From positions 33,478 through 97,477 of the forward strand of contig JBKECO010000031.1 in the NCBI GenBank assembly GCA_047974745.1: a stretch of DNA of 64,000 nt, in the 5' to 3' direction. Both the position numbers and the translations under genes were made by a program. The notes beneath the pieces were generated by a model. That model was not told the DNA's origin, did no database searches, and saw only the letters and a list, made by a program, of their open reading frames with translations. How positions within the stretch are numbered: the stretch's first letter is position 1; each line of letters opens with the position of its first letter. The stretch is from Lachnospiraceae bacterium (lineage in GTDB: Bacteria > Bacillota > Clostridia > Lachnospirales > Lachnospiraceae). Shown piece after piece: positions 5,348 through 10,481 of this stretch.

Positions 5348-5385
5348 CTTATATCTATTGACCTTATATCTATTGATCTTATATA
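5348..5385. repeat. Tandem direct repeat, ~15-nt period, ~2.5 copies (cttatatctattga)
   Basis: Copies of cttatatctattga lie at 5348-5361 and 5363-5376. A partial third copy, cttatata, starts at 5378 and overlaps the stop codon of the downstream minus-strand gene. Confidence 0.6.
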
Positions 5386-7883
5386 AACAGATTTACATTT
5401 GACTCTTCCGCATCTCCCAGATAGGAGGCAACGCCTGCATATTCTACTCCATCCAGCAGTTCTTCTTTTGTGATTCCCATAATATCCATGGACATTGTAC
5501 ATGCTATGAGCTTAACGCCATTGTCCATGGCCTTTTTCATGAGTTCTTCCAGTGAATCGACATTCTTATCATTCATGACCTTTTTCATCATGGCCGTTCC
5601 CATTCCACTCATATTCATTTTAGAGAGCTTCAGCTTCTTGCTTCCCTTAGGCATCATCCCACCGAACATGGAATCGATCAGTGATTTTTTCACTTTTGGA
5701 CCATCGCTCTTACGAAGAATGTTCAGTCCCCAGAAAGTAAAGAACAACGTGACCTTTCTTCCCATTGCAGCAGCACCATTCGCAATAATAAATGCAGCAA
5801 GCGCCTTGTCAAAATCCCCGCTGAATACAACGATCGTCTTGCCATCAGGCAGTGCTGTCAAGGTGCCTTCATTGATATCACAATCTTCAGAACCCTTTTT
5901 AATAAATACGATATTCTCTTTATTTTTACGCTCGACTCTCAGAAGTGTATTTCCTGTTCTTCTGCACCAGGAATCTACATCTGCTGCAAATCCCATATCC
6001 GTTGCTGAGACTTGCAGAACCTCATTTTCTTCCATTTCACAGATCGCTTCATGTACCTTCATAATTGGACCAGGGCACTGGAGGCCGCTGCAGTCGAGAA
6101 TACGGATCTCCTTACTGCTGATAATATTGCTTCCAGAATTCTCGGACTCTGCTTTGTGTGCTATCATGATCTCTTTCTCCTGATATCCTTGTTTCTTCTT
6201 ATCAAAATGGTGCATTGACTTATAGAATGAGGTTCCGCCGGAAAGTACCTTCACATGCTCGAATCCTCTTTGTATCAGTATTCTGGCCGCATTATAAGAG
6301 CGAACACCTACTGCACAATATACAACGATCGTTTTGCCAGAATCCAGTTCTCCAATCCTGTCCCGAAGCTGTCCGAGCGGGATGTGAACGGAATTTGGAA
6401 TGGAATATACCATCCGTTCCATCTCTTCCGTGATATCCAGTATTATCAGATCATTGACTTTGAATGGATCTTTGCTCCACTCATCCATTTCATCCCATTC
6501 CATAAAACTCACGAGACCGTTCAGTACATTTTCTGCCACGAAACCAAGCATGTTTACAGGATCCTTCGCTGATGAGAAGGGTGGTGCATAGGCCAGCTCC
6601 AGATCTTTGAGATCGGATACCGTTCCATTCAGTCGCATTGTCGTTGCAATTGTATCAATTCGTTTGTCTACACCCTCCTGACCGACGATCTGAGCCCCAT
6701 AAATGGTCTTGTCCTCATCAAAGATCAGCTTTAGTGTGACCGGTACTGCTCCGGGATAATAACCGGCATGAGACTTCTGATTGATTAAAATCGTGAAATA
6801 GTCCCTATCTTTTTTCTTTCCCATTGCAGCCAACTGCTTCTCATTGAGTCCTACCGACGCCACATCCAGATCAAATACTTTTGCCACTGCGGTTCCTAGT
6901 GATCCTTTATAACTGACTGTTGTATCACCAGTTAGAATGTCTGCTAGTATCCTGGCCTGCTTATTTGCCGGTCCGGCAAGGGGAATCATCGTTTTCTCTT
7001 TCGTAACGTATTGATCGACTTCTATTACGTCTCCAACTGCATAAACACTCTTGGCAGATGTTTCAAAATGCTTGTTGACAATGATACCGCCTCTGCTGTT
7101 GCGTGCAATTCCTGCGTCTGTGGCAAGTTCACTATTTGGCTTGACTCCAATTGCCAGTACGATCAGATCAGAACGTAAGGAATGACCGCTTGTCAGCTCG
7201 ATTTTTGTCATATCATTTTCATGGGTGAACGAAGCGACTCCATCACCAAGGATAAGATCGACTTTGTTCTGCCGCATGTTTTCATGCAATAGATTTGCCA
7301 TTTCGAAATCAACTGGAGCCATGACCTGGTTCTGCATTTCAATGAGGGTCACTTTCAAACCTAATTCATGGAGATTCTCTGCCATCTCAAGCCCAATAAA
7401 TCCACCACCTACAATAGCAGCAGATTTCAAATTGTGTTCACTGATATATTTTTTAATTCGGTCTGTATCGGGTACTGTCCAGACAGTAAATACATTTTCC
7501 GCATCTATACCAGGAATGTTTGGTCTGATCGGTGCTGATCCTGTTGCAATAACAAGATAATCATAGGCCTCTTCATAGGATTCCTGTGTCTTTTTATTTT
7601 GGACAATGACCTTTTTCTCATCCGGAAGTATTTTCGTCACTTCACTGAGCACTCTGACATCAATATTGAATTTCTTCTTCATTGCCTCAGGGGTCTGCAG
7701 CAATAATGCATCTCTGCTTTTTATAACATCACCAACAAAATAGGGAAGTCCGCAGTTTGCATAGGAGATATATTCCCCCTTCTCAAACATAATGATTTCC
7801 ATCGACTCATCTTTTCTTCTGAGTCGAGCTGCAGTGGTCGCTCCACCAGCAACACCGCCAATAATGATCGTCTTTTTACTCAT
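5379..7883 (-). CDS. Four-domain sulfur-trafficking oxidoreductase: CoA-disulfide/persulfide reductase, rhodanese, TusA/SirA, DsrE-like
   Basis: 834 aa. Motifs are GGVAGG FAD-binding, the redox Cys in SYANCGLPYF, the rhodanese loop CAVGVR, the TusA motif LQCPGP, and a C-terminal DsrE/DrsE-like domain. Confidence 0.85.
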   Translation of the reverse strand: MSKKTIIIGGVAGGATTAARLRRKDESMEIIMFEKGEYISYANCGLPYFVGDVIKSRDALLLQTPEAMKKKFNIDVRVLSEVTKILPDEKKVIVQNKKTQESYEEAYDYLVIATGSAPIRPNIPGIDAENVFTVWTVPDTDRIKKYISEHNLKSAAIVGGGFIGLEMAENLHELGLKVTLIEMQNQVMAPVDFEMANLLHENMRQNKVDLILGDGVASFTHENDMTKIELTSGHSLRSDLIVLAIGVKPNSELATDAGIARNSRGGIIVNKHFETSAKSVYAVGDVIEVDQYVTKEKTMIPLAGPANKQARILADILTGDTTVSYKGSLGTAVAKVFDLDVASVGLNEKQLAAMGKKKDRDYFTILINQKSHAGYYPGAVPVTLKLIFDEDKTIYGAQIVGQEGVDKRIDTIATTMRLNGTVSDLKDLELAYAPPFSSAKDPVNMLGFVAENVLNGLVSFMEWDEMDEWSKDPFKVNDLIILDITEEMERMVYSIPNSVHIPLGQLRDRIGELDSGKTIVVYCAVGVRSYNAARILIQRGFEHVKVLSGGTSFYKSMHHFDKKKQGYQEKEIMIAHKAESENSGSNIISSKEIRILDCSGLQCPGPIMKVHEAICEMEENEVLQVSATDMGFAADVDSWCRRTGNTLLRVERKNKENIVFIKKGSEDCDINEGTLTALPDGKTIVVFSGDFDKALAAFIIANGAAAMGRKVTLFFTFWGLNILRKSDGPKVKKSLIDSMFGGMMPKGSKKLKLSKMNMSGMGTAMMKKVMNDKNVDSLEELMKKAMDNGVKLIACTMSMDIMGITKEELLDGVEYAGVASYLGDAEESNVNLFI

Positions 7884-8049
7884 TTCTACTCCTTTAATCC
7901 CTTTTATCTGTATTGTTAAATCTTTGTCAATCCTGCCTGCGATTCTACATTTTGTTTTTTACAACACAAATGATGGGTTGTGGCAGGAATATCCTTACCT
8001 ATCATACAGAAAAAACGGCAGTACTTCTGTGACATTATCACATTGATCC

Positions 8050-9465
8050 TTACAGGGAGTTTCCAACCGCTTCTTTCGCCAGTCTGTCCGCCACTTCATT
8101 TCCCTCCACGCCGGCATGTCCCTTTACTTTAACAAACCTGATATTAATCTTTTGCATCGCTTCCTGCATAAAGGAATAGTATTGCTTTGTTCCCTCTTTA
8201 TTCCTCTTCCATCTGCCTGCGGCCCACTCTTCAATTCCCAGATAATCATAATAGATCGTCAGATCAGAAAGGCCAAGCTCGATCGCTTTTTCTACCGCTG
8301 CCATACTTGCGCATATTTCACCTGCAACATTGCGCATCGTGGCCATTTCTTCATCCTGTCCTGATCCCTGTAGGGTCTCTCGGATTCCATCATGAACTAG
8401 AATCCCACCATAACCATATATTTTATTCTTTGCATGATAGGAACCATCTACAAAGGCATAATTTATAGGATAGGTCTCTGCTGCCTCTTCCTTATGCTCA
8501 TCTGCAGGGATATCTGCCTCTAGGATTAGCTTATGCAGTACTGCTGCAGATTTCTGCAATTTGATTTGTTCTTCTTCATTCAGCGAAATCGGAACTTTTT
8601 TCTCCATTCCCCGTTTTCCAATGATCGCCGGAAGACTTAGCACAACATCCTCAATACCATATTCACCATGCATCAGTCCCGAAACAGGAAGAATCGACTT
8701 TTCATCCCTCATGATGGCTTCACAAATGCGCTTTACCGCCATTGCGATTCCATAATAGGTCGCATGTTTTTTCGAAATAATATCATAGGCACTGTTCTTT
8801 ACTGTGGATGCGATCAGATCCGTTGCCTCATCGTGTTCGAAGAAACCTCTCATCTCGCAAAAATCATCCAGTTTGATGCCGGACACATTTGCGCTGCTCC
8901 AGGCAGCGATCTCACTATCGCCATGTTCACCGATGATAAAAGCATGGACGCTCCTGCTGTCAACCTTGAGTCGCTCTCCCAAAGCATATTTTAACCTTGC
9001 AGTATCAAGAACGGTGCCTGAACCTATTACTCTCTCTTCCGGAAAGCCACTTAGTTTAAGCGCTACGTAAGTGAGTATATCCACAGGATTTGAAACGATT
9101 AGTAAAATACCTGCGCAATCTCTTTTCTTGATCTCAGGTATAATGCTTTTGAAAATAGAAATATTCTTATATACAAGATCCAGTCTGGTTTCTTCCGGTT
9201 TCTGATTTGCACCAGCGGTAATGACAATGATCGCTGCATCAGCAATATCATCATAACTGCCGGCATAGATCTGCATCGGGCGGGCAAACGGGATTCCATG
9301 GCTTATATCAAGAGCTTCACCGATCGCTCTGTTTTCATCTGCATCGATGAGAACCATTTCAGAGAACATTCCACTCTGCATCAGACTGAAGGCAGACGCA
9401 GAACCCACGAACCCACAGCCAATGATAGCAACCTTTCTTAAATTAATATGCTTTTCCTTATTCAT
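8050..9465 (-). CDS. ldh: L-lactate dehydrogenase fused in frame to a C-terminal RNase H (type 1)-like domain
   Basis: Start trimmed to the ATG at 9465, with AGGAGG 8 nt upstream. The first ~310 aa are LDH (IIGCGFVGSA, GEHGDSE). After a short linker comes an RNase H-like domain (AFVDGSY..., NVAGEI, YYDY, KVKGHAGVEGNEVADRLAKEA). There is no stop codon between the two parts. Confidence 0.8.
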   Translation of the reverse strand: MNKEKHINLRKVAIIGCGFVGSASAFSLMQSGMFSEMVLIDADENRAIGEALDISHGIPFARPMQIYAGSYDDIADAAIIVITAGANQKPEETRLDLVYKNISIFKSIIPEIKKRDCAGILLIVSNPVDILTYVALKLSGFPEERVIGSGTVLDTARLKYALGERLKVDSRSVHAFIIGEHGDSEIAAWSSANVSGIKLDDFCEMRGFFEHDEATDLIASTVKNSAYDIISKKHATYYGIAMAVKRICEAIMRDEKSILPVSGLMHGEYGIEDVVLSLPAIIGKRGMEKKVPISLNEEEQIKLQKSAAVLHKLILEADIPADEHKEEAAETYPINYAFVDGSYHAKNKIYGYGGILVHDGIRETLQGSGQDEEMATMRNVAGEICASMAAVEKAIELGLSDLTIYYDYLGIEEWAAGRWKRNKEGTKQYYSFMQEAMQKINIRFVKVKGHAGVEGNEVADRLAKEAVGNSL

Positions 9466-9503
9466 ATGTATTTCCTCCTTGTATCCGTACTTCTCATGGA
9501 TAG

Positions 9504-9533
9504 AAAAAGGGTGCACCAACTACTGGAGCACCC
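9504..9533 (-). terminator. Intrinsic terminator downstream of desulfoferrodoxin
   Basis: Minus strand reads GGGTGC, a 13-nt loop, GCACCC, then TTTTT. Confidence 0.6.
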
Positions 9534-9552
9534 AAAATCATCTGATTTTTCT

Positions 9553-9927
9553 CTATGATACTGATTTCCATAAACCGTGAAGGTTACAGTGTTCATAAGC
9601 AGCGATCAGTTCATCTGAATCTGTCAGAACAAATACTGCGACCGGTTCTTCACCTGGACTTAATGCTTTTCTTTGAACGCCCTCTTTCGTCTCGATTGAA
9701 ATAAATTCAATATGATGTTCTTCGAGCATTGGATGAGCTACTTCCCCGACTTTGACTGTAACTGTGCTTCCATCTACTTCTACTACTGGTACATGCTTTT
9801 CCGTTGCTGCATCCGTTGTACCTGGAATCAGTTCTTTCATTGGTTGTCCACAACAGACAAGAGTGCTTTGAGAATCTTTTACAATTTCCACCATTCTTCC
9901 ACATAGTTCGCATTTGTAATACGTCAT
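9553..9927 (-). CDS. dfx: Desulfoferrodoxin (2Fe superoxide reductase)
   Basis: 124 aa with the N-terminal desulforedoxin motif CELCG...CCG, a neelaredoxin-like C-domain (KHVP..., HPM, EHCNLHGLW), and an AGGAGG RBS. Confidence 0.9.
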   Translation of the reverse strand: MTYYKCELCGRMVEIVKDSQSTLVCCGQPMKELIPGTTDAATEKHVPVVEVDGSTVTVKVGEVAHPMLEEHHIEFISIETKEGVQRKALSPGEEPVAVFVLTDSDELIAAYEHCNLHGLWKSVS

Positions 9928-10032
9928 TTTTTTCCTCCTTGTCCTTAATCCTATATTTTTACGTTTGGGTCAAAGTATTTTGCTTTATTATATCAGTAAG
10001 CATTTTGAAAAACAACTACCTGATGCAGACAT

Positions 10033-10061
10033 TTGAAACCTTTTTTTGAATATGTTATACT
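10033..10061 (+). promoter_or_regulatory. Candidate sigma-A promoter for the DtxR-like regulator gene
   Basis: TTGAAA, a 17-nt spacer, then TATACT, with a TGn extended -10. Confidence 0.4.
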
Positions 10062-10103
10062 AACAACAGTTTGATATAACTCACAAAATATGAGGTGAAT
10101 CTT

Positions 10104-10481
10104 ATGAACCATATTAATGAATCCGCAGAGAATTATCTTGAGACGATTCTCCTGCTCAGCAAACAGCTGCCGGTTGTTCGTTCCGTCGATATCGCCAATG
10201 AATTAGGGTTCAAAAAATCCAGCGTTAGTATCGCTATGAAAAATCTTCGAGAGAAAGAGCATATTACGGTTACCAATACAGGATTTATATATCTGACAGA
10301 GAAAGGTCTAGCGATTGCGGAGATGATTTATGATCGCCATCAGGTGCTCTCATCGATGTTGATACGTCTTGGTGTCAATCAGGAAACAGCACTGGATGAT
10401 GCATGCAGAATAGAACATCTGATCAGCCAGGAAAGCTTTGATGCGATAAAAAAATACATGAAACAAATCAGCAGTATCTGA
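10104..10481 (+). CDS. DtxR/MntR-family metal-dependent transcriptional regulator (no SH3-like domain)
   Basis: The ATG at 10104 lies 6 nt after GAGGTG. The N-terminus ESAENYLETILLL and the wHTH SVDIANELGFKKSSVSIAMKNL are typical of the family. Confidence 0.8.
   Translation: MNHINESAENYLETILLLSKQLPVVRSVDIANELGFKKSSVSIAMKNLREKEHITVTNTGFIYLTEKGLAIAEMIYDRHQVLSSMLIRLGVNQETALDDACRIEHLISQESFDAIKKYMKQISSI

Follow-up and report, generated by a model that had tools for sequence, protein, structure and literature searches.

What is to be made of a single open reading frame (ORF) that runs from a glycolytic dehydrogenase straight into a nuclease? Such a frame lies in the genome of a gut Lachnospiraceae bacterium (GenBank assembly GCA_047974745.1), within a stretch of 64,000 nucleotides of contig JBKECO010000031.1 (positions 33,478 to 97,477) that is called the window here; all positions below are those of the window. 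An earlier note on this DNA had read the frame as a complete L-lactate dehydrogenase (LDH) followed by an acidic linker and a ribonuclease H (RNase H) type 1 module, and had offered a moonlighting fusion, a recent stop-codon loss or an assembly artefact as explanations. The results presented here suggest that the fusion is real and confined to one lineage, that the dehydrogenase has replaced the hybrid-binding domain (HBD) of a clostridial RNase H1, and that two independent activities were probably left behind; judging from the sequence, we regard this explanation as the probable one.

Architecture of the fused gene

The fused gene, ldh::rnhA(catalytic), occupies positions 8050 to 9465 of the minus strand, the strand being an addition to the earlier description. 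It starts with the ATG at 9465, ends with the TAA at 8052-8050 and encodes 471 amino acids (aa), as delimited by the ORF list and by Pfam and NCBIfam matches, which bear out that the three parts are read through in frame. The complete L-LDH (residues 1-319) spans 8509 to 9465, the acidic linker PADEHKEEAAETYPIN (16 residues, 320-335) spans 8461 to 8508 and the RNase H type 1 catalytic domain (residues 336-471) spans 8053 to 8460, all on the minus strand. Every motif quoted earlier was recovered in the order and with the spacing described, and the ORF sequence contains no stop codon or frameshift between the two domains. Inspection of the sequence revealed no in-frame start codon with a Shine-Dalgarno motif in or near the linker for the RNase H half, which would therefore be made only as part of the fusion; LDH and RNase H thus appear to be translated as one chain. 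The linker is predicted to be disordered or flexible (pLDDT below 50 at residues 322-328 in an AF2 model of the whole fusion) and it resembles the linker that joins HBD and catalytic domain in the relatives of the RNase H half.

Both halves retain their catalytic residues

The LDH half matches the Pfam families Ldh_1_N (residues 11-148, 140 bits) and Ldh_1_C (residues 151-314, 139 bits), and it scores above the cut-offs of two NCBIfam models, the L-LDH equivalog TIGR01771 (401.7 bits, cut-off 303.55) and NF000824 (416.2 bits, cut-off 339), and thus belongs to the L-LDH family TIGR01771/PRK00066. Residues 11-315 align to residues 8-312 of the 317-residue LDH of Bacillus stearothermophilus (1LDB, E 5e-91). 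The Rossmann motif GCGFVGSA (16-23), GEHGD (179-183) and the C-terminal LHKLILEAD (310-318) are present, and the catalytic residues are kept, namely the arginine in ETRLDL (92-97), the aspartate and arginine in LDTAR (153-157) and the histidine in GEHGD, which we take to be the equivalents of Arg109, Asp168, Arg171 and His195 in the reference numbering. The nearest homologues without a fusion have a length of 320 aa and about 80% identity, and they terminate six residues past the L-x-K-[IL]-L motif (for example ...LKKILKECEL and then the stop). Their end position corresponds to I319 of the fusion protein; the LDH thus reaches its natural C-terminus intact and lacks nothing but the stop codon.

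The RNase H half matches Pfam PF00075 at residues 337-467 with 51.7 bits against a gathering cut-off of 25.8, covering profile positions 6-140 of 141. Its motifs are YAFVDGS (336-342), NVAGE (379-383), YYDY (405-408) and GNEVAD (455-460). The best sequence match in the PDB is 2kq2 (E 8e-20), the closest solved relative, which is named merely "RNase H-related protein", and human RNase H1 and Escherichia coli RNase HI match more weakly. An AF2 model of residues 316-471 has a pLDDT of 93 and a pTM of 0.85, and its strands and helices succeed one another canonically; Foldseek matched it best to the RNase H1 of Halobacterium (4e19, TMt 0.84), the RNase HI of Sulfolobus tokodaii (3aly), E. coli RNase HI and the RNase H domain of Rv2228c (3hst), so that the type 1 fold, a five-stranded sheet with flanking helices, is borne out by modelling. 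In the model of the whole fusion, by comparison, the LDH half came out poorly (pLDDT 30-60) because the mixed alignment had put HBD sequences over the LDH columns, and its Foldseek result was not used. The score against the E. coli-type RnhA equivalog NF001236 is only 36.4 bits, the cut-off being 160, and on sequence grounds the domain is best classed as the HBD-associated clostridial type and not as the E. coli type.

Is this half still under the constraints of a working enzyme? One alternative accepts the fusion in the DNA and sees the RNase H half as a weak or dispensable passenger heading for decay: a recent, near-neutral accident would have broken rnhA by removing its HBD and promoter, and would be tolerated since RNase HII is present. 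The residues themselves speak against decay. The earlier note had made the catalytic carboxylates decisive, and they are intact, together with the histidine: D340 (8448-8446), E383 (8319-8317), D407 (8247-8245), H450 (8118-8116) and D460 (8088-8086). In an alignment with 60 relatives, D340, E383, D407, H450 and N456 are invariant columns and D460 is conserved in at least 90%, and the fusion has all of them. It also matches 48 of the 50 columns conserved at 80% or more, a fraction of 0.96 that stands mid-range beside the family mean of 0.93 (61 relatives compared). The reading frame stays open through the full 136 residues, the fold is predicted very confidently, and the composition is native, the GC content being 0.45 in the RNase H half and 0.43 in the LDH half, with GC, GC at third codon positions and codon fit typical of the genome (codon fit of the RNase H half at its 56th percentile).

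The junction in separate assemblies

Before any biological meaning is given to the fusion, it has to be asked whether the junction exists. The gene could be an assembly or sequencing artefact, either a chimeric join of ldh and an rnhA fragment or an overlooked stop or indel where the two halves meet, and two circumstances are compatible with such an error: the genome is a draft of 69 contigs (estimated to be 97.6% complete), and the public NCBI gene model shows, in place of the 471-aa product, an ORF of 162 aa whose CTG start lies within the LDH half. Nevertheless, the exact 471-aa product was found on Logan contigs of two separate sequencing runs, SRR30067235 (a contig of 27 kb) and SRR30067233 (one of 5.8 kb). 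Both contigs carry the same neighbours as the window, they come from a different assembler from that of the genome, and the DNA of all three assemblies is identical, base for base, in the gene as well as in the flanking sequence. Such agreement between separate assemblies makes an assembly chimera unlikely. Additionally, the reading frame is kept through the join, which falls precisely where LDH naturally ends; the genome contains no further copy of either half from which a chimera could have arisen; and the RNase H half lacks its own start codon and has a native composition. An artefact, as the earlier note had allowed, is thus disfavoured and appears very unlikely.

The public gene model deserves a separate remark. 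At 90% identity the fusion clusters with itself and with that 162-aa model (P0389, beginning MHKLILEAD), which spans 8050 to 8538 of the minus strand, starts at the CTG of Leu310 within the LDH half and has no Shine-Dalgarno motif upstream. The public annotation thus seems to split or mis-call the fusion, and this constitutes an annotation trap, since the model calls a 162-aa RNase H from an internal CTG.

Probable descent of the nuclease half from HBD-bearing RNase H1 proteins

What is the source of the RNase H module? With residues 318-471 as the query, 117 proteins were retrieved, nearly all of which combine PF01693 (the HBD, or "viroplasmin" domain) with PF00075, in agreement with the earlier view that the module normally forms the C-terminal half of viroplasmin/RNase H1 proteins. 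The catalytic domains of the HBD-bearing relatives are 59-71% identical to that of the fusion, and proteins of 200-220 aa with the order HBD, linker and RNase H (63-71% identical) are found in Eubacterium ruminantium, Agathobacter, Lachnospira, [Lactobacillus] rogosae and human-gut contigs. In a FastTree tree of the domain, the RNase H of the fusion nests among HBD-bearing proteins. By its sequence, then, it is placed within the clostridial clade of HBD-linker-RNase H1 ("viroplasmin family") proteins, from which it would have lost the HBD. No match to PF01693 was found in the fusion protein or elsewhere in the genome, and a permissive tblastn search of the genome yielded no HBD relic. The HBD raises affinity for RNA:DNA hybrids and processivity in RNase H1 enzymes that have no basic protrusion; a protein deprived of it should accordingly bind more weakly.

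Related genomes carry ldh and rnhA on separate contigs, and the neighbours of rnhA vary from one genome to another. An "empty" ancestral rnhA site was looked for, and the search met these differing contexts among relatives and the lack of a relic HBD in the genome. The two HBD-type proteins nearest in the tree (P0149 and P0169; loci L027-L029) are surrounded by unannotated ORFs in the same orientation, with LRR_5, AIM24 and 3D domains; such regions may be mobile or phage-like and could help to explain the frequent relocation of rnhA. In one genome of the family (G021; locus L026, G021:C48, 4744-5922), the HBD-bearing rnhA is the divergent neighbour of a gene for a DtxR-like regulator that is 70% identical to the one encoded in the window at 10095-10481, two genes from the fusion, an adjacency that hints weakly that rnhA once lay in the neighbourhood of the fusion. 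A further contig (L100, JBQKHF010000009.1), titled "Thermoguttaceae bacterium", encodes a Lachnospiraceae-like HBD-RNase H (67% identical), and a gene flanking it is 89% identical to one in the fusion genome; the organism label looks wrong.

The ldh locus with and without the fusion

The other side of the junction can be followed by synteny. A metagenome-assembled relative has a 320-aa LDH (P0013, 78% identical) whose gene ends with a stop codon; a desulfoferrodoxin gene lies 5' of it, and 131 bp past the ldh stop begins a gene for an 830-aa CoADR-rhodanese-TusA-DsrE protein. These flanking genes are the same as the neighbours of the fusion. Compared with this unfused ldh, the linker and RNase H therefore represent about 450 bp of extra DNA that follows the final codon of ldh and precedes the downstream gene. 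A MAFFT alignment of the junction DNA with the syntenic locus misplaced the end of ldh and was informative just for the ribosome-binding site (RBS) of the downstream gene.

The simple loss of a stop codon, suggested earlier, thus accounts for one part of the observations only. The ldh stop is indeed missing, but the HBD and the intergenic DNA are gone as well, and the syntenic relative has no rnhA after ldh. The earlier note had also advised a check for separate ldh and rnhA genes, and none exists in this genome beyond the fused ORF, which is its sole PF00075 match and contains its single L-LDH; a gene for RNase HII is present. The loss of the HBD and the presence of RNase HII are what a passenger domain would lead one to expect, as are the many genomes of the same family that have no RNase H match to the fusion query at E <= 0.001 and the confinement of the LDH-RNase H combination to a singleton lineage in the searches described below.

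Distribution of the fusion and other partner swaps

How rare is this protein? No other LDH-RNase H fusion was found in a search of 5.8 billion clusters at 90% identity with the whole protein and with the RNase H region, nor by phmmer against 1.84 billion representative proteins, among which any fusion would be expected to rank above LDHs alone, nor with junction-spanning queries in JGI metagenomes and GTDB genomes, nor in a set of 40 related genomes and one of 300 genomes of the family. The architecture search therefore agrees with the earlier statement that this module is not known on a glycolytic dehydrogenase, and no report of an LDH-RNase H fusion was found in the literature searched. The fusion is confined to one lineage, the relatives searched having included no second species of the genus.

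Three candidates met in these searches were rejected. A match in one genome (G079, query residues 5-429) is a read-through into an unrelated peptidase gene. A 439-aa protein from ENA (P0002) is an LDH homologue with an internal tandem duplication of about 120 residues (the block SAIMKSIIGEIKK...KNSA is repeated), either a real duplication or an assembly artefact. A third (P0376, 491 aa, from the representative library) consists of an LDH (residues 7-308) followed by a MarR-type winged-helix domain (369-426), and is thus an LDH-MarR protein.

The same RNase H clade has nonetheless exchanged its partner repeatedly. In gut Clostridia, HBD-less proteins of this clade include cupin::RNase H (P0122, P0123, P0131), PNPOx-like::RNase H (P0132, P0137), GGDEF-EAL::RNase H (P0143), IspD::RNase H (P0148) and RNase H::PRTase (P0168), and a truncated HolA::RNase H is a further architecture of the clade; P0147 and loci L120-L124 belong to the same group of HBD-less proteins. 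The GGDEF-EAL fusion occurs in three assemblies from three studies and the cupin fusion in an NCBI metagenome-assembled genome; at one locus (L120), a GGDEF-EAL gene follows a cupin::RNase H gene. In a quick FastTree tree of the domain, which is of low resolution, these fusions are spread over several branches and the LDH fusion stands apart from them; they would therefore be independent events. Their sequences indicate that partner swapping at the disordered linker recurs, the LDH case being a new instance, and suggest a recurrent capture of neighbouring genes at that linker. That such HBD-less fusions persist across samples and studies speaks against a passenger domain on its way to loss, and taken with the conservation described above it makes that outcome unlikely, although it still deserves some weight.

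Origin and possible function of the fusion

The history favoured here begins with the single ldh of the genome, in its conserved dfx-ldh-CoADR neighbourhood of oxidative and sulfur stress genes. This gene would have lost its stop codon so that it now runs, through the acidic linker of some 16 residues, into the catalytic domain of the single RNase HI. One or two events of illegitimate recombination or deletion appear to be the most economical origin: they would have joined the last ldh codon to the linker of an rnhA gene in the same orientation, which already stood or had newly arrived immediately downstream, and would have removed the stop, the spacer and the HBD. The product is expected to be a tetrameric LDH, as its homologues are, displaying RNase H domains on flexible tethers and combining an NADH-dependent lactate dehydrogenase with an Mg2+/Mn2+-dependent endonuclease for RNA:DNA hybrids. 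It is plausible that oligomerisation of LDH partly offsets the loss of the HBD through multivalent binding, and RNase HII may take over the remaining duties in hybrid processing.

Several points weigh against this account. The intermediate arrangement, an ldh directly followed by an HBD-bearing rnhA, was not found among about 90 rnhA/ldh loci, the contexts of the closest LDHs and the 300 genomes of the family, so that the path proposed above is an inference. The part of the genome missing from the draft could contain a second rnhA. Removal of the HBD weakens substrate binding in the RNase H1 enzymes of Bacillus halodurans and Thermotoga, and activity may have dropped here too. The junction is supported by assembled contigs, the Logan runs have adjacent accession numbers, which limits their independence, and both may come from the same study as the genome. 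Finally, the fusion was seen in one species only.

A more ambitious possibility, close to the moonlighting fusion of the earlier note, is that the two halves form an integrated enzyme in which LDH would act as a targeting, oligomerising or regulatory module for RNase H, by tetramer avidity, by assembly dependent on fructose 1,6-bisphosphate (FBP) or NADH, or by nucleic-acid binding of the Rossmann fold; the removal of R-loops or primers would then be coupled to the redox or glycolytic state in an oxidative-stress operon. LDH does sit exactly at the usual position of the HBD, with a linker of similar type, and the gene belongs to the conserved dfx-ldh-CoADR stress cluster. Cupin, PNPOx-like, IspD, GGDEF-EAL and PRTase domains, the partners in the other fusions, are families that are commonly oligomeric, and there are reports that LDH and GAPDH of mammals bind single-stranded DNA and AU-rich RNA, which is taken here as a lead only. 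On the other hand, the combination is conserved in no more than one lineage, the other fusions have mutually unrelated partners, which fits an opportunistic capture of upstream genes better than a specific pairing, and the model of the whole fusion shows a disordered linker and is uninformative about a domain interface. An integrated enzyme therefore seems improbable from the sequences at hand. A still broader conjecture, which we regard as a long shot, is that the HBD of RNase H1 is an exchangeable module in gut Clostridia, recurrently replaced by an upstream-encoded enzyme whose multimerisation or metabolite-controlled assembly holds the nuclease on hybrids; if this were true, R-loop or primer removal in this organism would be tied to the NADH/FBP state sensed by the LDH tetramer.

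The significance of the locus depends on which of these accounts holds. If the fusion of two independent activities is active as proposed, it would be a natural experiment in which a clostridial RNase H1 catalytic domain works without its HBD on a tetrameric metabolic enzyme, and it would be relevant to the ways in which an HBD, a basic protrusion or oligomerisation gives such an enzyme its affinity for the substrate. Along with its sister fusions, it would indicate that partner swapping is favoured by the long disordered linker found in HBD-RNase H1 genes. If the RNase H half is inactive, the fusion would be a recent genomic accident of little consequence. For an active fusion, a "Rosetta-stone" inference would wrongly link lactate metabolism with hybrid removal. 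The recurrent replacement of the HBD in gut Clostridia is the aspect most worth pursuing.

Neighbouring genes and expression signals

The start codon of the fusion is preceded by a strong RBS, the Shine-Dalgarno sequence AAGGAGG(A) at 9472 to 9479 of the minus strand, about 7 nt 5' of the ATG; translation from a TTG at 9519, an alternative start, would yield a product of 489 aa. Upstream, the desulfoferrodoxin (superoxide reductase) gene dfx lies at 9553 to 9927 (minus strand) and is syntenic with that of the unfused relatives. Downstream, at 5379 to 7883 (minus strand), is the gene for an 834-aa CoADR-rhodanese-TusA-DsrE reductase, the gene found directly 3' of the unfused ldh in the syntenic relative. 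With the DtxR-like regulator, these genes make up the cluster DtxR-like regulator, dfx, ldh::rnh and CoADR at 5379-10481. In the relative (L021/L022, ENA contigs from metagenome-assembled genomes), the cluster comprises rubredoxin, flavin reductase, desulfoferrodoxin, ldh, CoADR-rhodanese-TusA-DsrE, DsbD, AhpC/thioredoxins and Fur; an LDH embedded in an operon for O2 detoxification is noteworthy on its own account.

Between dfx and the fusion gene, RNAfold predicts a terminator-like hairpin (GGGTGCTCCA...TGGTGCACCC and a T tract) at 9502 to 9533 of the minus strand, with a 10-bp stem containing one mismatch, followed by TTTTTCT, about 40 nt ahead of the RBS of the fusion. A scan for consensus terminators did not flag it, and inspection of the sequence between the hairpin and the ATG of the fusion revealed no convincing promoter. 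The hairpin could be a terminator or an attenuator.

Comparison with known systems

Each part of the fusion can be set beside a known protein. The bacterial allosteric L-LDHs, such as those of B. stearothermophilus (1LDB/1LDN) and Bacillus subtilis (3PQD), align with it over their full length (E about 1e-91), and all of their catalytic residues as well as the FBP-site His188 are present in the fusion; at the FBP-site position that we take to be 173, the fusion has lysine where the allosteric enzymes have arginine. The fusion differs from them by a C-terminal extension of 152 residues, made up of the linker and RNase H.

The clostridial HBD-RNase H1 proteins share with the fusion the DEDD residues and histidine, the type of flexible linker ahead of YAFVDGS and a fold class without a long basic protrusion. 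Unlike the fusion, they carry an N-terminal HBD, the place of which is taken in the fusion by a 319-residue LDH. The HBD-less fusions of gut Clostridia have both the RNase H clade and the layout of partner, linker and YAFVDGS in common with the LDH fusion, but their partners are different and none is an LDH.

A precedent is the mycobacterial RNase HI-CobC/acid phosphatase (Rv2228c, MSMEG_4305/RnhC), in which RNase HI is likewise joined to a small-molecule enzyme unrelated to it; in structure, the RNase H domain of Rv2228c (3hst) is one of the proteins that match the present domain best. In the mycobacterial protein, RNase H is N-terminal, whereas it is C-terminal in the LDH fusion; the partner is a phosphatase in the former and an NAD-dependent dehydrogenase in the latter; and the mycobacterial fusion is conserved across the genus, whereas the LDH fusion belongs to a single lineage. 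The fusion protein is also no member of the bifunctional RNase H/acid phosphatase family NF005567 (16.5 bits, cut-off 326) and has no phosphatase domain. The two domains of MSMEG_4305 are reported to be functionally dissociated (PMC7466739), and by analogy the LDH and RNase H activities of the present protein may be independent as well. The fusion of RNase H to unrelated enzymes is thus a type of event already known, and its combination with LDH is a previously unreported one.

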